Shown: positions 1-31,353 of the stretch, in pieces
Position numbering within the stretch: position 1 is the first letter of the stretch
Layout of the letters: each line of letters opens with the position of its first letter
DNA from: an uncultured Actinomycetes bacterium
GTDB taxonomy: Bacteria > Actinomycetota > Coriobacteriia > Anaerosomatales > CAWKMJ01
Reading direction: 5' to 3'
NCBI GenBank assembly: GCA_963850695.1
Contig: CAWKMJ010000001.1
Span: 1,022,764 to 1,086,763 of the forward strand
Length of the DNA: 64,000 nucleotides
Position numbers and translations under genes: made by a program
Notes under the pieces: generated by a model
Database searches by the model: none
What the model was told of the DNA's origin: nothing
Seen by the model: only the letters and a program-made list of their open reading frames with translations

Positions 1-133
1 ATGCCGTCGCTGCCACCGATCAGCTCCGGCTCGATTCCATAGACCTGCTTGATCACGGCCGCCACACGGGCGGCCCCGGGCAGGTAGTTTCATTCTTGGC
101 AGTACTCGATAGTGACACGCTGCTACGCATCAT
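1..133 (-). CDS. Rdx (SelW/SelT/SelH) family selenoprotein, N-terminal part; in-frame UGA (Sec) at 90-92; runs off the left edge
   Basis: The minus strand reads RVTIEYCQE-TGA-NYLPGAARVAAVIKQVYGIEPELIGGSDG. This is the Rdx-fold CxxU motif, with TGA where CxxC paralogs have Cys. A GGGAGGG SD plus ATGATG lies at 128-133, but one indel is needed to join that start to the Sec frame (TAG at 123-125 in that frame). A SECIS-like hairpin follows. Confidence 0.6.
57..75 (-). promoter_or_regulatory. SECIS-like hairpin downstream of the UGA at 90-92
   Basis: The RNA is GGCCGCC-CGUGU-GGCGGCC: a perfect 7-bp stem and a 5-nt loop containing GU. It starts 14 nt after the UGA. Confidence 0.5.
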
Positions 134-236
134 GACCCTCCCTGCAGTCCGCGCCCCCGAGTGTGGCGAGTGTGATCGGGTCCAGAGAGCTCCGGAGTCG
201 AAGACGCCGATCTGAGCGCGGCAAAGGGGCTCCGCA

Positions 237-635
237 CTAGATGCCGAGCACCTGCGCGGTGCGCTCGGTGTCGCTCGTCCTGATCACCACGTTGGTGTGC
301 TCGCCATCGCCGGTCGTCGCGTAGATCCACTCCACGTTGACTCCCGCGTTCGCCAGCGTCCGAGCCAGCCACTGCAGCTGACCCGCACGCTGCTCAAGCG
401 ACACGAGGACGACCTTGTTGTGTTTCACTGTCGCACCCAGGTCGGTGAGCACCCGCTCGGCAACCGCATTGTCGCCGGTCAGCAGCATGAACTCGCCGTG
501 GTCTCCCTTGTCGTATGCGCCGATGGCACGAATGTCGACGCCCTCCTCGGCCAGCGCCTCGGTCACCTCGGCCAGCAGCCCCACCTTGGTAGGTGCTTTG
601 ATGAAGAGTTCCTCGACCACACGCACGTCTGCCAT
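237..635 (-). CDS. ACT domain-containing protein
   Basis: Intact ORF with two ACT-like halves (VGLLAEVTEALAEEGVDIRAI and AGQLQWLARTLANAGVNVEWIY). The ATG at 635 is preceded by AGGAGAGGG. Confidence 0.7.
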   Translation of the reverse strand: MADVRVVEELFIKAPTKVGLLAEVTEALAEEGVDIRAIGAYDKGDHGEFMLLTGDNAVAERVLTDLGATVKHNKVVLVSLEQRAGQLQWLARTLANAGVNVEWIYATTGDGEHTNVVIRTSDTERTAQVLGI

Positions 636-692
636 GATGGACCCTCTCCTCTCGGGCACGGACGCAAGATGCGCCCACCCAGTACCTAGTGA

Positions 693-714
693 GTACCCGT
701 ACTGGAACGGGTAC
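693..714. promoter_or_regulatory. Perfect 8-bp inverted repeat GTACCCGT-N6-ACGGGTAC in the divergent ACT/rubrerythrin intergenic region (candidate operator)
   Basis: Read directly from the sequence. It is flanked by AGTACCT (681-687) and AGTACCC (692-698) half-site-like repeats. Confidence 0.4.
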
Positions 715-752
715 CCACTTCACGACAGCCAGCCGAGCAGACAGGAGGCACG

Positions 753-1326
753 ATGGGACTCAAGGGAACCAAGACGGAAGAGAACCTACTCAAGGCATTC
801 GCGGGCGAGTCGCAGGCACGCACGCGCTACACGTTCTTTGCCAGCAAGGCCCGCAAGGAAGGGTACGTGCAGATCTCGAACCTGTTCCTTGAAACAGCCG
901 AGAACGAGAAGGAGCACGCCAAGGTCTTCTTCAAGCATCTCGAGGGCGGAACGGCAGAGATCACGGCCACGTACCCGGCGGGCAAGATCGCTTCGACGGC
1001 CGAGAACCTTCGTGCGGCGGCCGACGGCGAGAAGGAGGAGTGGGACATTCTCTACCCCGACTTCGCCGACGTGGCCGAAGAAGGAGGGCTTCGCCGCCGT
1101 GGCGGAGTCTTTCCGCGAGATCGCCGAGGTCGAGTCGTGGCACGAGCGCCGCTATCGCAAGCTCCTCGACAACGTGGAGCAGGGTATCGTCTTCAAGCGC
1201 AACGAGCCGGTGCGCTGGAAGTGCGGGAACTGCGGCTACGTCCACGAAGGTGCCGAGGCACCCTCGCAGTGTCCTGCCTGCAGTCACCCACAGGCCCACT
1301 TCGAGATTTGGACCGAGCCGTACTAG
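753..1326 (+). CDS. rbr: Rubrerythrin (diiron domain plus C-terminal rubredoxin-like domain), one frame break
   Basis: ENLLKAFAGESQARTRY and EHAKVF lie in the frame starting at 753. ESWHERRYRKLL plus CGNCGY...CPAC lie in the frame ending at 1326. The frame switch is near 1080-1090. Confidence 0.85.
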
Positions 1327-1339
1327 ACAGACCGGAGGA

Positions 1340-3747
1340 CTACTGCGCCCCCAGCGCGACCTTGATCTCTTGAAGTGTCGGCTCGGTGATGCTCTTGGGA
1401 CCGCCGAGCACGTAGCATGGCGGATCTCATCGGCATGCCCTGTGAGGTAGCCCTTGGTCGTCGTGTTGAGCGGGGAAGCGTCCGTGTAGAGGATGGGCCC
1501 GTTGAGCTTGCCGAGTCCGCTACCTCCCGTGATCGCATCAGGCAGCTTGTTGGCAACCGCCACCGTCTCGTCGCCGAGCCACCCGCGAGCGATGGCGGCA
1601 GCGGCCATGTTGGATGCCACGACGTACCGATTGCTGCCATTGATACGGGTCGCCCCCAGTGCGGAGCGGATGCTCTCCGGCACGGCAGAGGTCGAACCCA
1701 TGACGTAGAAGGAGTCGTAGTCGGCCTTGGCCCAGCTGGCCCTGGGCAGGAAGGTGTTGCGGGAGAGGATGACCGGGAAGTCCTGGTGCGCCGAGGACGG
1801 CGCCGCCGCGAGAGCGTTGTAGAAGTAGGCCGAGTTCTCACCGTTGGTGACGAACGCGGTCTTGGGATACGCGGGACCGAGAACGGCCTGCATGCGCTCG
1901 GCGATGTTGTAGGCCACGGCGTAGCGGTCCGACCCGCTCACCCGATCGTTGACGTTGAGTCGTGGCGACAGCTTCCTGATCTCGCTCTGCACCCAGCTGG
2001 GAACCGACACCGGGCCCCCCACGATGTGGACGTATATCGTCTGGCCGGGATTGGCCGCGACGATGTTCTGAAGCGCGATGCGGGTCGTCGAGTTGATCTC
2101 CTTCTTGGGATTGGTGCCCCAGACCAGCAGCAGCGGCGCATCGTAGATGCCCGAGAGTCCTGATGCCGTCAGCGGGTCGGCTGCAGCCCGATCCTCTCCG
2201 GCGGCAAGGATGACATGTCGCACGCCGACGTATCCGGGCCAGCCCTCCTTGGCGAGATTCACTGCCACTGCATAGCGGTCATACCCGGAGATGCGCTCGA
2301 CGTCGGTGGCCACGGTCTCAACGACTCTGCCTGGGGAGGTCGCCGGCTGGTAGGTCGCGTCGCCAGCGTATCGAAGCTCATAGGTGGTGTAGCGCGCCGA
2401 GGGCGCGACGTGTGCCCAGTAGACGTCGGATGATGCATCGTAGTTGGCTGTCCCGACCATCACAGGGCTGCCGGTGGGAGTGGTGTCCCCCGTGCCGGCC
2501 CACAGCGTCACTGTCCGTGACACGCCGCCCAGGGGTCGTCCTGCCGCATCGCTCAGCCGGCCCCAGACAGCCACCTTGGCACCGCGCGGGACCTCCGTGT
2601 CTGAGATCTCGCAGGTCAGTGACGTAGGAGTCTCAGTGATCTCAGATGTCGCGAAACCGAGCGAGTAGACGCCTGACATGTTGCGCCCCGAGCGCCACAT
2701 CTTCCACATGGCAGCCGCTCCGTTCGCACCGAAGTAGCCCGGGTCGTAGAGAACACTCATGGCGTAGTTGCGCTGGTCGTTGAAGGTGCCTGGGGGGCCG
2801 TAACCGTTGAACGTACCGCCCCCGCCGATGCTGGCGATCGGGTTGTTGCCGGTGTCCTTGGTCCAGTTGAGGCCATCGGTCGAGGAAGCGTAGCCGATGC
2901 CCATGTTCCCGCCTCCACCGGAAGCTGCATTCCAGTCGTACTTGCCCGCGCCGCCGTACCAGAGGTGCCACTCGGTCGGCGAGCTCTTCACGACCGCCAC
3001 GCGCGAGAGGGAGCTCGAGTCCCACTCGACGGTCGGGCTCGTGCTGCCTAGATCCACTGCGACGGCAGGACTGCCGAGCGTCCACGTCGTGCCATCAGAT
3101 GACGACACGTTGTAGATGCGGCCGTTGTTGTCCGCCCATCCGCGGTAGGCCCCGCCGTCGTACATGACGTGAAGGTCGTAGACGGGCGAGCCGGGGTTGA
3201 GCCATCCGGGCTCGTCGGGAGGACACACGTCGAGCGGGTAGTTCGTGTGCCAGAACTCGCCATCAGCGGAGTAGGCGAAACGGACGAGGCTGCCGTTGCC
3301 CGCCTCCCAGAACCAGCCCTTGTAGTAGGGATCCACTGCGTAGGTCTCAGTGGATGAGGCCTGGATCGGATCGCCGACGGAGTCACCGAATGCGGCCGCA
3401 TCGTAGAGCACCTGCGGATGCCGCCAGTCCCCGGCAAGGACCGGGGCCAAGCCCCAGCGCTCCCAGGTCTCCCCGTCGTGGGAGTAGGCGAGCCACGTCT
3501 CGCCTCCATCGTCGTAGTACATCTTGTAGGCGAAGTCCTTGCCGTTGCCATCGAATCCCGTTGCGCTGTAGAGGACCGAGGGATAGTAGGCCCGATGAGG
3601 GGAACCCCAGTCGTAGATGGGGTTCGAACCCCAGTCGTACCACGTGGGTGGAACACCCATCGCAGCCGCCGGGATCGTCATGAGCACCATCAGAGCCACT
3701 AGAACGATGGCCAGAGCTCGCGTCCGGCCGCAATCCGAGTACCGCAT
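1340..3747 (-). CDS. Large secreted protein: W/Y/G-rich beta-propeller-like N-terminal region plus three cell wall binding repeat 2 (CWB2)-like units
   Basis: The MRYSD start at 3747 is followed by the hydrophobic segment ALAIVLVALMVLMTIPAAAMG. The C-terminal half has three DRYAVA/NRYVVA-type units. The tail YVLGGPKSITEPTLQEIKVALGAQ-stop at 1340 is reached only after a frame switch near 1405. Confidence 0.6.
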
Positions 3748-4034
3748 GTCATTCTCCCTCTGAGAGGCAACGGGTACCCGGCTTCCGGGCACCTTCGTGC
3801 TGTCCGTCTACGCTCCGTATCGACCACTTCGCGGCCTCGCCTGAGCGAGTCGAGTCGAGCGACGCGCGCGTACGACGGCGCGTTCCATCCGCGGTCGCCA
3901 TGTTTCCGCAGGTAAATGACACAATTGTTACAATGCAGGAGTTGGCGTGGGTGTTGCAGAACATGATACCGTGGACGGACAAGATCGCCTCGCCGGCACG
4001 GGGCTGGACAACCGTACCGGGAGGCACGAGCACC

Positions 4035-9435: not shown

Positions 9436-10309
9436 CTAGCGCACGATCTTGCTGATGGGCACCTCGAGGATGTCCTCGGCGCCGGCTGCCTTGAGCCTGG
9501 GAATGAGTATGTTGACCGTCGCCTTGTCGGCCACAGTGGTGATCTCGTAGTCGTCGGATCCGTAGAGCTGGTTGACTGTGGGCTTCTTCATCGCAGGCAG
9601 CTCGGCGACGACCGCTCGATGTCCTCCTCGGCCACGTTCATCGAGAGCAGTACGCGCCCCCGGGCCTCGATGACGCCGAGGAGGAGCGTACGGATCTCCT
9701 CGATAGCCTGCCTCTTCTCGCGGATCGGCCCAGGCCTCCTTGCTGGCAAGAAGCCGTGTCGTCGAAGTGAGAACGGTGTCGACGATCTTGAGGCCGTTGC
9801 GTCGGAGCGTCGAGCCCGTCTCGGTGAGATCGACCAGAGCGTCCATCATCTCGGGCACCTTCGCCTCGGTTGCTCCGTAGGAGAAGTGCACCTCGACATC
9901 GATGCCCAGCTCATCGAAGAACGCCTTGGTCGCCTTGGGAAACTCGGTTGTGATGCGGCTGCCCGGCGCGATGTCGGACGCGCTCTCGATGGGCGACTCC
10001 TGGGGCACAGCAAGGACCATCTGCACGAATCCGGTACCGGTCTTCGCGTAGGGCAGCTCTGCGACCTCGACGACATCGGCTTCGCTCTCGCGAACCCAGT
10101 CGTGGCCCGAGATGCCGATGTCGAAGTAGCCGTCCTGCACGAACACGGGAATCTCCTGCGGGCCGGAGGATCTTCACGCGCTCGATGCGCGGATCGTCGA
10201 TAGTGGGGTTGTAGGCTCGGCTCGACTTCTTGACCTCGAGGTCGGCCTGGGAGAACAGAAGCAGCGTCTGCTCCTCGAGACTGCCTTTGGGAAGCGCGAG
10301 TGAGAGCAT
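9436..10309 (-). CDS. hisG: ATP phosphoribosyltransferase (long form), frame breaks
   Basis: It starts MLSLALPKGSLEEQT. It then reads VQDGYFDIGISGHDWV and SYGATEAKVPEMMDALVDLTETGSTLRRNGL. The regulatory tail is ATVNILIPRLKAAGAEDILEVPISKIVR. Confidence 0.85.
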
Positions 10310-12200: not shown

Positions 12201-12597
12201 CTATCGCGGCTCGAAGGCCAGCGAAACCGAGTTGATGCAGTACCTGAGACCCGTGGGCCGCGGACCGTCTGTGAACACATGGCCGAGGTGCCCATCGCAC
12301 CGGGAGCACACGACCTCGACGCGCGCCATGCCAAACGAGTCGTCCGAGCGCTCGGTCGACGGCCTCCTCGCGGACAGGTTGCGTGAAGCTGGGCCACCCG
12401 CATCCCGAGTGGAACTTGTCGCGCCGAATCGAACAGCTCAGCACCGCAACCTGCGCATACATAGGTGCCGTCGTCCTCAAGATCCGTGTAGACACCGGAG
12501 AATGCCGCCTCGGTGCCCGCCCGCCGCAGGACACGGAACTGCTCAGGAGTCAGAGAGCCCTCCACTCATCGTCTGTCTTGTTGATGTAGTCGCTCAT
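12201..12597 (-). CDS. msrB: Peptide-methionine (R)-S-oxide reductase MsrB, frame breaks
   Basis: It contains [53 protein letters not shown] and RYCINSVSL. Confidence 0.85.
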
Positions 12598-12690
12598 CTG
12601 CTCCCCTATCGTCATCGCGCTGCTAGCGTGATCGCTTGCCGACGAGACTCCGCGAGGCGCTTCTGCGCTGCTCGCATCAAGTCCGAGCTC

Positions 12691-13339
12691 CTAGATCTCA
12701 CTATCGAGCTGAAGCGGTGAGCCCGCACCATACAGATACCCGTTGAGCCTGGCTGCCGCAGTCGACTCCCGAAGCGCGCTGTCGTCCGGATAGTGTCGGC
12801 GCATCTGCTTCATGATCGCGCGATCCGCTCGCAGGGCGTACTTCTGGTGGTAGTCCTCGGCGGGCGTGAAATCGCTGTACGGCTCGATCCGCGTGCAGCG
12901 GTTCCTTGCCAAGTAGCGCCGCCCAACGCCTGGCTGCCTCGAGCGCGAGTGCTTCCTGAGTCTCATCGTGAGTGAGTATCAGTGACTCGTACTGAACGCT
13001 GTGCGCCGAGCGCGTAGGGTCGTGCATGCCAAAGAAGGCATCGAGCAACTCTGCATACGAGATCGGCCGCCGGATCGAAGTCGACCTGGATACACTCGGT
13101 GTGATCGCCCATCGCGCGGTAGGTCGGTCGTGACTTGGTGCCGCCCGCATAGCCGACTCGCGTGCGCACGACACCTTCCATAAGCCCGAACCGGGCATCA
13201 GGGCCCCAGAATCAACCCGCGCCAAACGTCGCCTCAGCCCGGTGGTGTGGGCGGGATCGATAGTCGGCAGCTGCACCGATTCTTGCCCGGTGGAGCCGCG
13301 GCCTGTGCCTATCCGCTTCAACATGGCTGCCTCCTGCAT
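12691..13339 (-). CDS. msrA: Peptide-methionine (S)-S-oxide reductase MsrA with in-frame UGA (Sec) at the catalytic position; frame breaks elsewhere
   Basis: The minus strand reads AEATFGAG-TGA-FWGPDARFGLMEGVVRTRVGYAGGTKSRPTYRAMGDHTECIQVDFDP. The TGA at 13212-13214 takes the place of Cys in the GCFWG motif. The downstream part reads ISYAELLDAFFGMHDPT and PAEDYHQKY. The ATG at 13324/13339 is in another frame, so one indel is implied near 13240. Confidence 0.75.
13184..13196 (-). promoter_or_regulatory. SECIS-like hairpin downstream of the msrA UGA
   Basis: The RNA GCCCG-GUU-CGGGC starts 15 nt after the UGA. It can be extended to about 10 bp with single bulged U residues (CCUGAUGCCCG...CGGGCUUAUGG). 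Confidence 0.45.
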
Positions 13340-22771: not shown

Positions 22772-25211
<2,440 letters not shown>

Positions 25212-25385
25212 GGTCGTCCATCTCCGTCGAGTAGCGCCGCACTAAGGGTTCATGTCCCCCCGCAGCGGCGGATCCATCTTGCTCATGCATACCCAGGGGG
25301 GTATTATAGCTACGCACGATGCCGAACCGCAACCCCAAGGCAAGCTTTCAAGCCCACGCTATCCTTGGAGATGGAGGTGACGAGT

Positions 25386-25640
25386 ATGCCGTCGTCCAAG
25401 AAGGTCAAGATCTTCACATCTCCTACCTGCCACTGGTGCAAGGTGACCAAGGCATACTTCGATGAGAACGGAATCGAGTACACCGAGGCCGACGTCATCT
25501 CAGATCTCTCGGCCCGCAGAGAGATGGCCACCATGACTGGCCAATACGGCGTGCCGGTTATTCTCGTAGGCGAGAAGGCGATGGTCGGCTGGAACGAACA
25601 GGAGTTCCTCGAGCTACTGCATCGCCAGCCCAAGAAATAG
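25386..25640 (+). CDS. Glutaredoxin-like small thiol-disulfide protein (CHWC active site)
   Basis: Intact ORF reading KIFTSPTCHWCKVTKAYFDENGIEY...YGVPVILVGEKAMVGW. The ATG at 25386 follows GGAGGTGA. Confidence 0.8.
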   Translation: MPSSKKVKIFTSPTCHWCKVTKAYFDENGIEYTEADVISDLSARREMATMTGQYGVPVILVGEKAMVGWNEQEFLELLHRQPKK

Positions 25641-25682
25641 CTCGCCGGTCGTCAGCGGTGACCTAGGTCGACCGAGGCAAGA

Positions 25683-27062
25683 TCAGACTGGCCGCTCGGC
25701 GGCGTCCATGAACTTCGTGTACCGATCGAGGAACACGAGCGGCACGTTGCCGATGGGGCCGTTCCTGTGCTTGGCGACGATGACCTCAGCAAACCCCTTT
25801 GCGGGACGGTCTTCGTCTTCCTCTTCGCGAGAGTCTGTCGCACGATCAATGAACATGACGACGTCTGCATCCTGCTCGATCGCTCCCGACTCTCGCAGAT
25901 CAGACAGCATGGGCCGCTTCCCCGCACGTTGCTCCACGGCCCGCGAGAGCTGTGAAAGCGCGATGACGGGAACACTGAGTTCCTTGGCCAGGATCTTCAG
26001 CCCCCGGCTGATATCCGCGATCTCCGTCTGGCGATTGTCGTAGCGCTTGTTCTGAGGTTGCATGAGCTGCAGATAGTCGACGATCACCAGACCGTTGGGC
26101 TTGTCTCTCAGCAGACGGCGCGCCTTGGCGCGCAGTTCCAGAATCGTGATGGCAGGCGTGTCGTCGACGTAGAAGTCGAGCTCCGCCAGATCGTTCATGG
26201 CACGAGAGATCGACGTCCAATCCGGATCCTTGATCTGCCCCGTCCGCACATCCTGCGAGTTGATGCGAGCCTCCGAGCAGAGGATGCGCTGAATCAGCTG
26301 TTCTGCGGCCATCTCAAGACTGAAGAGGGCGACCGACGTATCGGCCTTGGCAGCATTGACGGCGATGTTGAGCGCAAGGGCGGTCTTGCCCACAGCCGGG
26401 CGAGCGGCAAGGATGATCAGGTCTCCCCTGTGCAGGCCAGCGAGCAGCTTGTCGAGGTCCTTGTAGCCAGTGGGAACGCCGGTGATCTTCTTCTGTTGCT
26501 CGAAGAGCTCCTCGAGCTGGTTGAATCCGGCCTCGAGGAGGTCGTCTATCTTGGCGAACTTCTCGGAGACGCGCTTATTCGTCACTGAGAAGATGAGTTT
26601 CTCGGCCTCTTCGACGACCTCTTGCATGTCGTCAGGAGCGTCGTAGCCGATGGAGACGATCTGTGTTGCCGCACCGATCAGATCGCGAAGCATCGCCGTG
26701 CGACGGACGATCTGAGCATACCTGCTTGCGTTGGCCGCGGTGGGCACGACGCCGGTAACGTCGAGGAGGTACGCTTTGCCGCCGGCCTGCTCCAGCTCCC
26801 CTGAGCTCTCCAGGCGGTCAGCTACGCTGAGCTGATCGATCGGGACGTTCTGGTTGTAGAGGTGTGCTACCGCCGTGAAGATGCGCTTGTGGGCGTCGCG
26901 GTAGAAATCCTCCGCGCTGAGCAGGTTGAGTCCCAGCTCCACGGCTTCGGGGGACAGGAACATCGAGCCAAGAATAGCCTGCTCGGCCTCAAGATTATGC
27001 GGTGGAACACGATCGGTCAGCGAGGAGACGGGGCGAATCGCACCAGCAGCGTCTGAACCCAT
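25683..27062 (-). CDS. dnaB: Replicative DNA helicase DnaB
   Basis: Intact 459-aa ORF. It contains PHNLEAEQAILGS, the Walker A motif ARPAVGKTALALN, IVDYLQLM and IALSQLSRAVEQR. Confidence 0.95.
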   Translation of the reverse strand: MGSDAAGAIRPVSSLTDRVPPHNLEAEQAILGSMFLSPEAVELGLNLLSAEDFYRDAHKRIFTAVAHLYNQNVPIDQLSVADRLESSGELEQAGGKAYLLDVTGVVPTAANASRYAQIVRRTAMLRDLIGAATQIVSIGYDAPDDMQEVVEEAEKLIFSVTNKRVSEKFAKIDDLLEAGFNQLEELFEQQKKITGVPTGYKDLDKLLAGLHRGDLIILAARPAVGKTALALNIAVNAAKADTSVALFSLEMAAEQLIQRILCSEARINSQDVRTGQIKDPDWTSISRAMNDLAELDFYVDDTPAITILELRAKARRLLRDKPNGLVIVDYLQLMQPQNKRYDNRQTEIADISRGLKILAKELSVPVIALSQLSRAVEQRAGKRPMLSDLRESGAIEQDADVVMFIDRATDSREEEDEDRPAKGFAEVIVAKHRNGPIGNVPLVFLDRYTKFMDAAERPV

Positions 27063-27281
27063 CGGACCTCCCTCTCCACCGCATGACTGTCGCAGCGGTC
27101 GACGCAGGACGCGTGGAACTCAGCCGCAACGAGACGGATGGTATAGCCACGCGGGTCAGCACACAACGGACCGTGAGGCTTGTCCACAGGAGAACTGCGC
27201 CCACAACCTGCGGTTTCCAGAGTATCCACAGATTGTCGAGATTCTCGTATGCGGGCCGGTCTCGACCCGCATACGAGAGCT

Positions 27282-27937
27282 CTACGCGTCTTCGGTCTGC
27301 TCGGCCTCTTCGATCACTTCTTCAGCCACTTCTTCTGCGGCCGCTTCTGCGATCTCAGAGGACTCAGCGCCTCGTCAACGTCTGCGTCCATCGCATCGTC
27401 AGCAGTCTCTTCGACTGCGTCCTCGGCGGCTACTTCTTCGATGGGCATCTCGGCAGCCTCCTCAGCGGTGAGACCCATGACCTCATGGGTGCCTTCGCCA
27501 ACGACGACTACAGTGATCTCCGCCTTGATGTCACGGTAGATCTGGACGGTGACCACATGCTCGCCGACCTCCTTGATCGTGCCGTGCAGATCGATCTTGC
27601 GACGGTCGACCTCGATCGACAGCTGCTCGTTGATCGCGTCTTCGACCATCGGGCTCGTGATCGAGCCGAACAAACGGCCCTCTTCGCCCACCTTGGCCTG
27701 GATGGTAACGGTCTTGCCGTCCAGTGCCGCGGCCATGCCATCTGCGTCCGACGTGCGAGCCGTCTCGCGCTTCTCGATATTGCCCTTGCGAGCCTCAAGC
27801 TGCTTGAGGTTGCCCGGCGTGGCCTCGACGGCCATGCTGCGCGGGATAAGGAAGTTCACGGCGTAGCCGCGCGCGACATCCACGACATCGCCTTCGCCGC
27901 CCTTACCCTTCACCTCTTGTGTGAGGATGACTTTCAT
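27282..27937 (-). CDS. rplI: 50S ribosomal protein L9 with an acidic C-terminal extension, one late frame break
   Basis: It starts MKVILTQEVKGKGGEGDVVDVARGYAVNFLIP. After a switch near 27355 the tail reads SEIAEAAAEEVAEEVIEEAEQTEDA-stop at 27282. Confidence 0.85.
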
Positions 27938-28006
27938 CTCTACTCCCTCGTTCGTTCCGGGACCCAACGTCCCGATTCGAAACGTACTGATCGTGGTTGG
28001 AACGGA

Positions 28007-28971
28007 CTACGTACTTGATGTCGAGCCTTCGGCTCCGTCCTGCGGAACCTGGTCGGCTCTCTTGATCTTGCGATAGTTGGCCACTAGGTCCAGGAAGCCC
28101 AGAAGGCTCACTGCGAACACGAGAGCCTCCGCTATCAACGCGACCGCATAGACGAGAACACGGACGGTCCGCTTGCTGAGAACTGATCCAACTTGCCTGC
28201 GACCACCCCGAGTCCCTGCCACGCAAACAGCGGGCGAGCTATCAAGAGCACGTTGAGGCCTACAGCCATGAGAACGTACTCCTGTTCTGCGACGAGCTTG
28301 CTCGCTACCAGTGCGACGACACCGAGTATCGGCAACCACAGAACATGCGGCGACAGATCGATGTCGGACAGTGTGGGTAGCGCGTTCTGTGACCTGTCGT
28401 ACCTGCGTGCAACGAAGCTGGCTGCGATGACAACAAGAATGGCCGTGACGCCGCCCGTGACGACATAGCTTGCGGGCCACGTCATGAACAAGGTCTCTGA
28501 GAGTCCCTGTGCATCTGCCGTCTCAGGCTGGGTGCCCACGATGCGCACAGCGCTCTCGGCCAACTCGCTGCCGGAGACGGCAGCGGTCTTGAGAGCTTCG
28601 AGAGAGACTCCCCGGCAAGCCAGGCGCCCCGCGTCGACTGTCACGAAACCGCCGAGTACGCCGCCGCCAACGCAAACAGCGCTGACCCAGGGACTACCTT
28701 TGGCAAGCCACGCGATAGCGCAACAGCACGCCCGTCAAGCCAACGACAGCGATGACGGCACCGCGGGGCCCGCAAGGACAGCAGCCATCGCCGCAGTAGC
28801 CTCCGGCCATGAATGCAGCGGCAACCGAACGGCCACGAAACGTCATGCCGGCCAGAGCAAGAGCGCATAGCGGCAAAGCCACATATGGCAGCTCGTGATC
28901 ACGAGGGCTGCAGCAAGACACGCTGCCGCTGCCACCAGTGTTGCTCGTATGTCAGCCCGATCCTTGGTCAT
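28007..28971 (-). CDS. Polytopic membrane protein in the YybS/DUF2232 position between rpsR and rplI, frame breaks
   Basis: It has several hydrophobic helices (ILVVIAASFV, VLWLPILGVVALVASKLV, LMAVGLNVLLIARPLF). The call rests partly on conserved gene order. Confidence 0.45.
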
Positions 28972-28974
28972 GAC

Positions 28975-29238
28975 CTAGCGACCGCGACGACCGTCCGTGC
29001 GACCACTGACAACCGGGACGGCGTACGGCAGAAGTGCCATCTCGCGGGCGCGCTTGATCGCCATGGAAAGCTCATGCTGGTGCTGGGCGCACGTGCCGGT
29101 GACCCGACGCGGCTTGATCTTGCCTCTGTCGGTCACGAACTTGCGCAGTGCCTGAGCATCCTTGTAGTCGATGAACTCGATCTTGTCCTTGCAGAATGCG
29201 CAGTACTTGTGGCGCGGTTTCCGAGCGTATTCGGACAT
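28975..29238 (-). CDS. rpsR: 30S ribosomal protein S18
   Basis: Intact ORF containing [25 protein letters not shown] and [28 protein letters not shown]. Confidence 0.95.
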
Positions 29239-29316
29239 CCGCTTCGACCTCCTTTCGCCCCGTGTGGGGCAGAGCGTCCGCGGCGGGAGGGTCCCGCCGT
29301 GACGCGTCATTCTCTT

Positions 29317-29739
29317 CTAGAACGGGATCTCTTCGTCGTCACCGGACGGGCTGGGGCTTGGCGTCGGCCTGCGGCGCACCGCCGCAGAAGCCTCCGCCAC
29401 CCGAGTCGCGAGAGCTGACATGAACTCGAGATCATCACCGACGACCTCGAGCTTGGAGCGCTTCTCGCCTTGCTGGTTCTCCCACGAGCTCCAGCGCAGC
29501 TTGCCCTCGACCGCAACCTTCATACCCTTTGAAAGATGCTTGGAGAGACCCTCTGCACGAGCGCCGAAGAAGACCACGTCCACGAAGTTCGCGTAGTCTT
29601 CCCACTCGCCTGTCTGCTGGTTCTTGCGGCGATCGTTGACCGCCACGCCCATGTTGAGAACAGACATGCCTGAACCCGTCGCGCGAAGCTCGGGATCGCG
29701 GGTCAGGTTGCCGCTGATCATCACTCGATTGATGCCCAT
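29317..29739 (-). CDS. ssb: Single-stranded DNA-binding protein
   Basis: Intact ORF starting MGINRVMISGNLTRDPELR. It has an OB-fold core and the acidic tail DDEEIPF. Confidence 0.95.
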   Translation of the reverse strand: MGINRVMISGNLTRDPELRATGSGMSVLNMGVAVNDRRKNQQTGEWEDYANFVDVVFFGARAEGLSKHLSKGMKVAVEGKLRWSSWENQQGEKRSKLEVVGDDLEFMSALATRVAEASAAVRRRPTPSPSPSGDDEEIPF

Positions 29740-29792
29740 GATATCCACCTCTTCTCACCGGGCGTCCCCGGAGATGTGCCGTGCGGGCGGGA

Positions 29793-30086
29793 CTACTCGC
29801 GATCGTCACGACGTACGAGCATGAAACGTACGACCGAATCCGTGATTCGCAGCACGCGGTCGATCTCGGCGATGCTGTCCGGGGTCGCATGGAAATCGAC
29901 GACGACGTAGTCGCCCTCGGTGAGGTCATCGATCTCGAAGGCGAGCTTGCGCTTGCCCCAGGAGTCGACGTTGTCGACGGTACCCTTGAGAGATGTGATG
30001 AGCGACTCGACCTTCTCGAGCGCGGCCTCGCGGGCCTCGTCATCGAGGATGGGAGTCAGCATGAGCATGAGTTCGTAGGCCTTCAC
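29793..30086 (-). CDS. rpsF: 30S ribosomal protein S6
   Basis: Intact ORF. The GTG start follows GGAGGTGA, and the protein reads KAYELMLMLTP...WGKRKLAFEI...GDYVVVDF. Confidence 0.95.
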   Translation of the reverse strand: MKAYELMLMLTPILDDEAREAALEKVESLITSLKGTVDNVDSWGKRKLAFEIDDLTEGDYVVVDFHATPDSIAEIDRVLRITDSVVRFMLVRRDDRE

Positions 30087-30559
30087 GTGTTCACCTCCCT
30101 CGGACTGTGCGGCTCCGGGGCCAGAAGGCACTGCCCGGAGCAGGAAATGAGCTTACGAAGTGTAGCACCGGGCTACCGCGGCTGCAAACGCGTAGACCTA
30201 GGGCCGGCGCACACTTCGTCGAGAGGCAGATTCCCATCGAACGCGCAGCTCCGCCGACATCGCCGTTGACCGCGAGCGCGAGCAGCGCGAGAGCGAGGGT
30301 CAGCCCCAGCGCCGGGGCTCCTGCCGAGCGGTCGCTTGGCGACGGGAATGACTGTGCCGACGCTCTGTCGATCTCGCACTCTGACGTCGCTGGCACGTGC
30401 GCAGGTAGACGGCGACGATCGTCGCCTGCTGTCTGACTCTGGCAGCGGTCGAGCGACCGCCGCGGCGTGGGCCGACGACGCTCTCCGACGCTCGCCGGGC
30501 CCGCCGGAACACACGTGGCAGTCGAGCACCGCCGCAGCCCGGCAGCATGCGGCTCCGGC

Positions 30560-31080
30560 CTCACAGGCTCTCCTCGGCCCGCTCGGCAGCGCTCCTGGGT
30601 CTCCGGCTGTGACGAGCTTGCAGACCGCAGGACGCGCGCGGGGTCCACGTACTCCCCGTCGACGCGTAGCCCACGTGCAGGTGCGGTGCTCGGATGACCA
30701 TCGCCGGTGCAGCCAGGACACCCAGGACCTCGCCTTGCGCTACGCGCGTTCCCTCGCCACGATCACCGACTCCAGAGGCAGATAGCTCCATCGGCCACCG
30801 TCGTCGTCCTCCACCGTCACGGCGATGGTGCTCTGACCGGGCCCGCCGGAATCGCGCCGGCGAAGACGACCTCTCCCCGCGTGAGACAAGCGACCGCGTC
30901 ACCGGCATCCACGCGATGTCCAGCCCGATGTGTCACTGACCGCACCCTCCGAACGTAGGTCTCCTCGAAACCGAGTAGCACCGGCACCCGGCACTCGGCC
31001 GAGGCTGCCGGAGCAGGGCCCAGAACACGCGGCCGCGCCAACAGACGAGCAGCCAGAGCGATCACGAGCACGCCGACCAT
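30560..31080 (-). CDS. M23 family metallopeptidase, frame breaks, 3' end unclear
   Basis: It has an N-terminal hydrophobic segment, MVGVLVIALAARLLA. It also contains HRAGHRVDAGDAV...GEVVFAG, an SYLPLES-type piece, GEVLGVL and PHLHVGY...YVDP. Confidence 0.5.
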
Positions 31081-31277
31081 GACGCCACGCCCTGCGGCCA
31101 GCTGGATCGCACCGCGAGGCCCTCATGGTCACACCCCTCTCCTGCGCACCCGAGGGGATGGGGCGCTGCCAATCTACGCGCGACTCTGACAGGCCGGCCT
31201 GAACGCTCCCTTACCGATGCCTACCGCGACAACACGAACGCCGCCCTCCGATGAGCCGGAGACGGCGCGATGTGTCG

Positions 31278-31353
31278 TGGAGCGGGCGACGGGTCTCGAA
31301 CCCGCGACCTCAAGCTTGGGAAGCTTGCGCTCTACCAACTGAGCTACGCCCGC
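31278..31353 (-). tRNA. tRNA-Gly (anticodon CCC)
   Basis: The 76-nt sequence is GCGGGCGTAGCTCAGTTGGTAGAGCGCAAGCTTCCCAAGCTTGAGGTCGCGGGTTCGAGACCCGTCGCCCGCTCCA. It folds as a full cloverleaf with anticodon loop TTCCCAA and an encoded CCA end. Confidence 0.95.

Follow-up and report, generated by a model that had tools for sequence, protein, structure and literature searches.

A candidate SelW-like/Rdx selenoprotein gene with a SECIS-type hairpin in an uncultured Gram-positive-type anaerobe

The window, the whole stretch of 64,000 nucleotides that was analyzed, begins with the 5' part of a small minus-strand gene that has a TGA codon in its redox motif. The question raised by this locus is whether the UGA is read as selenocysteine (Sec), is an ordinary stop or is a fault of the assembly. 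Translation of window 1-131 gave DA(TAG)QRVTIEYCQE(TGA)NYLPGAARVAAVIKQVYGIEPELIGGSDG, and the minus-strand frame VTIEYCQE-TGA was found where the earlier note on this DNA had placed it. The gene exits the window at its left edge after ...GGSDG(I). Sequence comparison suggests a gene of about 80 codons for an Rdx (SelW/SelT/SelH-type) CxxU protein, with the UGA very probably decoded as Sec by means of a hairpin SECIS. The features discussed are listed in Table 1.

Table 1. Features of the Rdx locus, of the remainder of the window and of related sequences
Feature	Location	Strand	Basis
Rdx/SelW-like selenoprotein gene, 5' part (~44 of ~80 codons)	1..133	minus	translation; Pfam Rdx and NF041051 matches
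SECIS-type hairpin in coding sequence: GGCCGCC 69-75, loop CGUGU 64-68 (G 67, U 66), GGCGGCC 57-63	57..75	minus	fold; family
GTG codon (Val in the real protein), start of the public 57-aa ORF calls after the UGA	63..65	minus	P0001-P0004
CxxU redox motif: Cys TGC 99-101, Gln, Glu, Sec TGA 90-92	90..101	minus	translation; homologs
One-base deletion site: AGCA-GCGT in the window, AGCAGGCGT in L001	120..121	minus	L001 alignment
ATG ATG, likely start codons; here out of frame with the CxxU frame	128..133	minus	translation; L001 and L003
Shine-Dalgarno-like GGAGGG; 2 nt before first ATG, 5 nt before second	136..141	minus	read from sequence
CWB2 cell-wall-binding protein, large	961-3792	minus	
msrA, TGA 13212-13214 at catalytic Cys (ATFGAG-U-FWGPDARFG)	12690-13300	minus	translation; PMSR
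msrA hairpin GCCCG-GUU-CGGGC, 15 nt after TGA	13184-13196	minus	sequence
Glutaredoxin-like CxxC protein	25137-25637	plus	
dnaB	25683-27062	minus	
rplI	~27317-27967	minus	by eye only
rpsR-ssb-rpsF	28978-30152	minus	
tRNA-Gly(CCC)	31278-31353	minus	
2xCDGSH gene	L001 2900-3560; L003 755-1060; L004 4170-4841; L005 10239-10910; L126 5418-6275		
Cys-form (CxxC) homologs	L006 ~10001-10144; L007 ~10001-10240		species-representative genome scan
Loop region with RNA constraint on coding sequence	A4 columns 37-41		family alignment

The complete gene and its protein family

The ACT-domain protein encoded upstream of the Rdx gene was found as an identical sequence on the ENA contig L001. This contig was near-identical to the window in alignment and ran on through the Rdx gene. 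A search with the composite protein returned only four database entries (P0001-P0004). All four were 57-aa gene calls beginning after the UGA, and all opened (M/V)A(A/V)VI(K/E)Q.. from the GTG at 63-65. One of them, P0003, carries the JGI label 'predicted Rdx family selenoprotein'. P0001, from a contig of 1.2 Mb, matched the window residues exactly and gave the C-terminus ...GIFQVCVDGDCVYTNGLMSGVPEPHVVMEALRDAMAE. The contigs behind P0002-P0004 were L003, L004 and L005. Each of these contained the gene in one unbroken frame, with a Shine-Dalgarno sequence, an ATG, (I)TIEYCxE-TGA-(N/D)YLPGASRVA... and a stop. GGAGG or a near variant (GAGAGG in L004) was present upstream of the start in L001 and in these three contigs. 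The four related contigs completed the gene at about 80 aa, ending GIFQVCVDGDCVYTNGL..(G/S)GVPE.... An FEV-type C-terminus had been expected in the earlier note, and the one recovered from the relatives and P0001 was Rdx-like (GG..GIFQV...) and close to that prediction.

With U read as C, the 40-residue window fragment scored 27.3 bits against Pfam Rdx (PF10262; cut-off 22.6), with a match covering model positions 1-29 on both sides of the UGA. NF041051 matched the same fragment with E 5.7e-11, and chance is far from accounting for these protein matches. The full-length orthologs and the composite window protein scored 45.6-49.6 bits against PF10262 and covered the model from 1 to 74 of 74. 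The proposed assignment to the Rdx family was thereby upheld, both the fragment and the full length being above the gathering score. Of the HMM checks that had been suggested, PF10262 was clearly passed, and TIGR02174 fell on neither side, as its scores of 36.9 (composite window protein), 34.3, 34.2 and 32.0 bits straddled the cut-off of 34.2. NF041051 (SelTWH_Campy, the Campylobacter-type SelT/SelW/SelH equivalog) was the best-scoring NCBIfam model and matched end to end (model 1-69 of 70, E ~1e-16). Its full-length scores of 58.4-61.4 bits did not reach the equivalog cut-off of 88. Scores so far under this cut-off indicate a related protein and not a member of the same orthologous group. Together with the TIGR02174 scores at the cut-off, this points to a somewhat divergent Rdx subgroup.

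Solved Rdx structures 3dex, 2fa8, 2ljk and 2ojl matched at E 4e-8 to 4e-6 with Cys beneath U, and a thioredoxin-like fold is predicted for the product. Homology was near whole-length to the Cys-form Rdx proteins SAV_2001 (3dex), Atu0228 (2fa8), 2ojl, 2oka, 2obk, 2p0g and 2ljk (E 4e-8 to 6e-3). At the CxxU position 3dex has IEYCTQC and 2fa8 has IRYCTQC. The CxxC motif of human MIEN1/C17orf37 (2ljk) aligned with CxxU, as in the other solved Rdx proteins. The solved proteins differ from the present one in having Cys and not Sec and in being approximately 100-117 aa long with extensions, and none has the C-x4-C pair described below.

SelW-like proteins are among the commonest bacterial selenoproteins and were the top selenoprotein family in Sargasso Sea data (PMC1088965, PMC1794560). 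SelW-like/Rdx selenoproteins have been reported in Symbiobacterium thermophilum, Desulfotomaculum reducens and Geobacter sulfurreducens (PMC1794560, PMC1088965). The role given to the Rdx family in the literature is a generic redox one with a link to glutathione (PMC1088965). The present gene resembles those of the bacterial SelW-like/Rdx proteins (PF10262, TIGR02174 CXXU_selWTH) in its product of about 80 aa with an N-terminal beta-strand, (T)IEYCxxU(N)YL and a mid-protein GG.G.F.V. It also resembles them in an in-frame UGA followed by a short coding-region hairpin with a small G-U apical loop. Unlike the usual members, the clade of the window has YLPGA in place of YLPRA. The C-terminal half of the clade is IFQVCVDGDCVYTNGL.GGVPE compared to the usual VFEV..DG.L.FSKK..GRFPE, and the C-x4-C pair and the neighboring 2xCDGSH gene are further differences. 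The gene is very probably a genuine SelW-like/Rdx selenoprotein gene, ordinary for a well-known bacterial family.

The UGA codon and the start of the gene

TGA was present at the CxxU position in five of five contigs (the window, L001, L003, L004 and L005), in three of them within a single intact frame. A read error at this codon had been named as something that would overturn the proposal. The five contigs come from ENA, JGI and Logan assemblies, several pipelines and different samples and all have TGA, which excludes a base-call error. The TGA was aligned with the Cys of CxxC homologs (TIEYCEEC, and the IEYCTQC of 3dex), in agreement with its earlier placement at the second redox position. 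The species-representative genome scan used a pattern that demanded Cys at the Sec position. Its only matches were L006 and L007, Cys-form homologs with TIEYCEECMYL... from two Candidatus Bipolaricaulota/Acetothermia MAGs.

Pairwise differences after the TGA were mostly at third codon positions (e.g. 9/7/25). Synonymous changes equaled or exceeded non-synonymous changes in five of six pairs, with 11 compared to 12 in the sixth. This bias suggests protein-coding constraint in the same frame after the UGA. The Rdx gene itself ends with TGA in L001 and L003-L005, and long window ORFs including dnaB end in the same way. This shows UGA to be an ordinary stop in the lineage, so that at CxxU its reading has to be context-dependent. 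A search for more C..U or U..C candidates across the window found only wrong-frame noise.

In the window the CxxU frame is shut two codons upstream of VTIEYC and has no in-frame start as assembled. The start-frame problem pointed out earlier between 112 and 133 is real in the assembly, with TAG at 123-125 and ATGATG at 128-133 out of frame. The extra G of L001 brings ATGATG into frame (MMGSRRITIEYC..), and ATGATG is in frame in L003 too. L001 has a frame break of its own, an extra G (GCGGACGG vs GCGACGG) that disrupts the C-terminal half. Window 1-2900 and L001 1-2734 differed by 46 substitutions and 10 single-base indels over the shared 2.7 kb. The indels fall partly inside genes, including the CWB2 and rubrerythrin genes, and only the N-terminal part of the rubrerythrin gene is in frame. 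Given the many single-base indels in the window, an assembly error probably explains the missing G at 120/121. The window probably comes from an indel-prone, long-read assembly, in which the missing G would be an artifact. One-base indels in a probable long-read assembly can hide small selenoprotein genes, and the gene calls of the window need care.

The rubrerythrin, msrA, msrB and apparently purA genes were frame-split, with window 753-1373, 12204-12565, 12690-13300 and 22775-24646 among the affected stretches. The ACT gene (~400 nt) differed from that of L001 by one substitution, and the next 240 nt by 11 substitutions and 6 indels. The jump in divergence past the ACT gene stop (window 237-270 vs 1-236) may reflect a boundary of recombination or a relaxation of constraint.

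The hairpin after the UGA

The earlier note had described a perfect 7-bp hairpin with a CGUGU loop 14 nt past the UGA, and it is present in that form. The local fold had z = -1.72 with 10 of 200 shuffles folding equally well, which is weak evidence alone. Of 128,000 window positions, 192 begin a perfect 7-bp hairpin, giving a chance of about 2.7% per 18-nt span after a given UGA. By itself the hairpin is thus only mildly unusual in DNA with 66% G+C. The perfect stem was exclusive to the window and L001, and in the three other relatives one pair was replaced by a U.C mismatch. For the five close sequences RNAalifold found no covariation or compensatory change and preferred a different fold, the close clade having an alternative fold of similar energy. 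Five close sequences are too shallow a set for the structure to be provable there and the wider family was used. An Rfam search at gathering and permissive thresholds gave no SECIS-type match, as this class is without a curated model.

Metagenome contigs were scanned for T-I-E-Y-C-x-x-TGA-x-Y-L, a pattern that stops seven nucleotides before the hairpin columns. At least 120 loci were found, and among the matches listed approximately 115 were Rdx ORFs reading through the TGA. When folded individually, most of the listed Sec-Rdx matches had a hairpin of 5-7 bp in the corresponding position. A gap-free alignment (A4) was made of 106 Sec-Rdx genes from L008-L127, with helix columns 30-36 paired to 42-48. 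Pairing was found in 78.6% of helix cells compared to 67.0 ± 0.9 in shuffled alignments (0 of 500 reached the observed value), a statistic that overstates independence since the family sequences are mutually related. The covariation score was 0.333, compared to 0.142 when shuffled (0 of 500, with the same overstatement) and 0.056-0.150 with slid partner columns. The central pairs 33:45, 34:44 and 35:43 had 20, 31 and 10 double changes, respectively. Viral contigs were scanned for Cys-form Rdx genes as a hairpin control and none were found. Synonymous-codon resampling with the protein fixed took the place of this control. It gave 4.26 ± 0.09 of 7 pairs compared to 5.43 observed (0 of 2000), indicating that codon choice favors pairing.

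The second loop nucleotide was G in 99 of 101 listed family matches and the following base was U in 82. In A4 the codon of the loop G encoded Gly (44), Ser (32, always AGY) or Arg (23), and Ser in the adjoining stem codon was always UCC. The CGUGU loop of the window was found in five other family members among the matches listed. These results support the window hairpin as the counterpart, at the same position, of a SECIS-type hairpin that covaries in about 100 other Sec-Rdx genes. The Sec-Rdx family offers a clean textbook example of constraint placed on coding sequence by an RNA signal, as the loop G is kept through Gly, AGY Ser and Arg.

The bacterial SECIS was defined on Escherichia coli fdhF and Moorella thermoacetica fdhA as a SelB-binding hairpin directly 3' of the UGA. 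The loop G-U of the present hairpin matches the G-U that SelB recognizes in the elements of E. coli and Moorella. The hairpin is like bacterial SECIS elements in lying within the ORF soon after the UGA and in having a small apical loop with a conserved G and then U (also PMC1088965). Unlike elements of the E. coli fdhF/Moorella fdhA type, it has no bulged U evident in the perfect stem of the window, and its SelB binding is predicted.

Sec decoding, alternative readings and gene neighborhood

A second UGA at a redox Cys had been claimed in msrA and proved to be real, with the TGA conserved in L128, L129 and L130. The window msrA is spread over three frames and the stitched protein scored 125.6 bits on Pfam PMSR. 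Its closest database relatives were gene calls beginning after the UGA (184 aa). In L128, L129 and L130 one intact frame contained the whole gene. Its TGA was at the catalytic Cys, with a conserved N-terminus before it and the same hairpin after it. L128 (msrA) and L005 (Rdx) lie on one 95,364-bp contig, and L129 is from the metagenome of L004. The conserved TGAs in Rdx and msrA indicate that the lineage maintains two UGA-containing thiol-redox genes, which lends good indirect support to Sec decoding. No tRNA-Sec was predicted in the window, which has one tRNA (Gly-CCC), and the related loci L001, L003, L004 and L005 had no tRNAs. In a crude six-frame scan of the 64-kb window, signature motifs of SelA, SelB and SelD were not found.

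Correctly annotated, this uncultured anaerobe, with its 66% G+C genome of Gram-positive type, is a likely selenocysteine user and likely has two or more thiol-redox selenoproteins. The finding is of practical use for annotation, as the public Rdx calls are truncated to 57 aa and the msrA calls of the relatives to 184 aa, both starting after the UGA. Knowledge of Sec decoding or of the Rdx family is unchanged by the finding.

The gene could instead be a pseudogene in this strain, the deletion at 120/121 being real, the start lost and the TGA and hairpin relics. The TAG and the missing start codon in the window would agree with this, as would the broken frame of L001 at a different place in the gene. 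This reading is improbable. The two Rdx frame breaks are at different sites and each is beside a G run, and the 10 single-base indels against L001 in the 2.7-kb comparison extend to the CWB2 and rubrerythrin genes. The window msrA is likewise split over three frames and is intact in three relatives. The Rdx gene is intact in three other contigs, and its C-terminal part (P0001, probably from the window's own contig) still has an open, conserved frame. It is less likely still that the UGA is an ordinary stop, giving a leader peptide of 14 residues and, from the GTG at 63-65, a distinct protein of 57 aa, although four of four database entries are called in that way. The Rdx domain spans the UGA, with Pfam model positions 1-29 on both sides of it, and five contigs conserve the upstream portion with its first beta-strand and CxxU motif. 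In Cys homologs the frame continues uninterrupted past the position, the GTG is inside the hairpin without a Shine-Dalgarno sequence of its own, and the JGI label of P0003 names a selenoprotein.

Two further readings are scarcely credible. Genome-wide reassignment of UGA to a standard amino acid (e.g. Trp or Gly, genetic codes 4 and 25), with no selenocysteine, has nothing specific in its favor except that Sec machinery was not seen in 64 kb. Against it, the Rdx gene ends at TGA in L001 and L003-L005, as do many long window ORFs including dnaB, and UGA falls exactly at the redox Cys positions in both genes and is then followed by a hairpin. The genome has 66% G+C, and to our knowledge the UGA-reassigned lineages are unlike such a genome. 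An error for TGC or TGT, which would leave a plain CxxC Rdx protein, would suit an error-prone assembly and merits equally little credence. The errors seen were single-base indels and not substitutions, and the TGA recurs in all five contigs across ENA, JGI and Logan assemblies and different samples.

Decoding of the UGA as Sec is the preferred reading. The Rdx gene would be transcribed in the same direction as the ACT-domain gene upstream of it and the CDGSH gene downstream. Scans for promoters and terminators near the Rdx gene detected nothing useful and an operon is accordingly proposed from gene order only. Translation would start at ATGATG. The UGA at 90-92 would be read as Sec, with the hairpin at 57-75 as the SECIS tethering SelB-GTP-Sec-tRNA(Sec) to the UGA-paused ribosome. 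Translation would then go on to the C-terminus GIFQVCVDGDCVYTNGL.(G/S)GVPE... and an ordinary TGA stop. The predicted product is a thioredoxin-fold CxxU oxidoreductase of about 80 residues. It is probably a small thiol/selenol oxidoreductase for redox-stress defense, and the nearby rubrerythrin gene and the msrA, msrB and glutaredoxin genes further along the window fit this role. The 2xCDGSH iron-sulfur protein encoded directly downstream may work together with it. Sec insertion, SelB binding and the biochemical role are what we infer from the gene sequences.

The Rdx proteins of L003, L004 and L005 contain a C-x4-C pair (VCVDGDCV) at residues ~49-54 of 80, which lies beyond the left edge of the window. 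The pair replaces the usual FEV..DG.L.FSKK motif and was present in 0 of 109 other Sec-Rdx genes among the matches listed. Such a pair could form a further redox site or a site for a metal. A gene for a 2xCDGSH (CRCG.S..KPFCD..H) and Fer4_19 protein was located 60-75 nt downstream of Rdx in four of four close relatives. In the window it would fall just past the left edge. The distant locus L126 also has a CDGSH gene directly downstream (~90 nt) on the same strand and was the only other such family locus among the matches listed. A CDGSH gene was within 3 kb of 0 of 108 other Sec-Rdx loci among those matches. A speculative and on the whole unlikely extension is that the clade is a distinct Rdx subtype, marked by the second cysteine pair and the downstream CDGSH gene, whose selenoprotein serves as a dedicated redox partner of the CDGSH protein (reduction, repair or cluster transfer) in anaerobes. 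If true, the CDGSH pairing would for the first time give a bacterial SelW-like protein a concrete function.

L004 has a 349-aa ORF without a Pfam match (2796-3845) between the ACT-domain and Rdx genes. The ACT-Rdx spacer was approximately 105-125 nt in the other contigs. Window 25137-31353 contains a housekeeping cluster typical of Gram-positive-type genomes.
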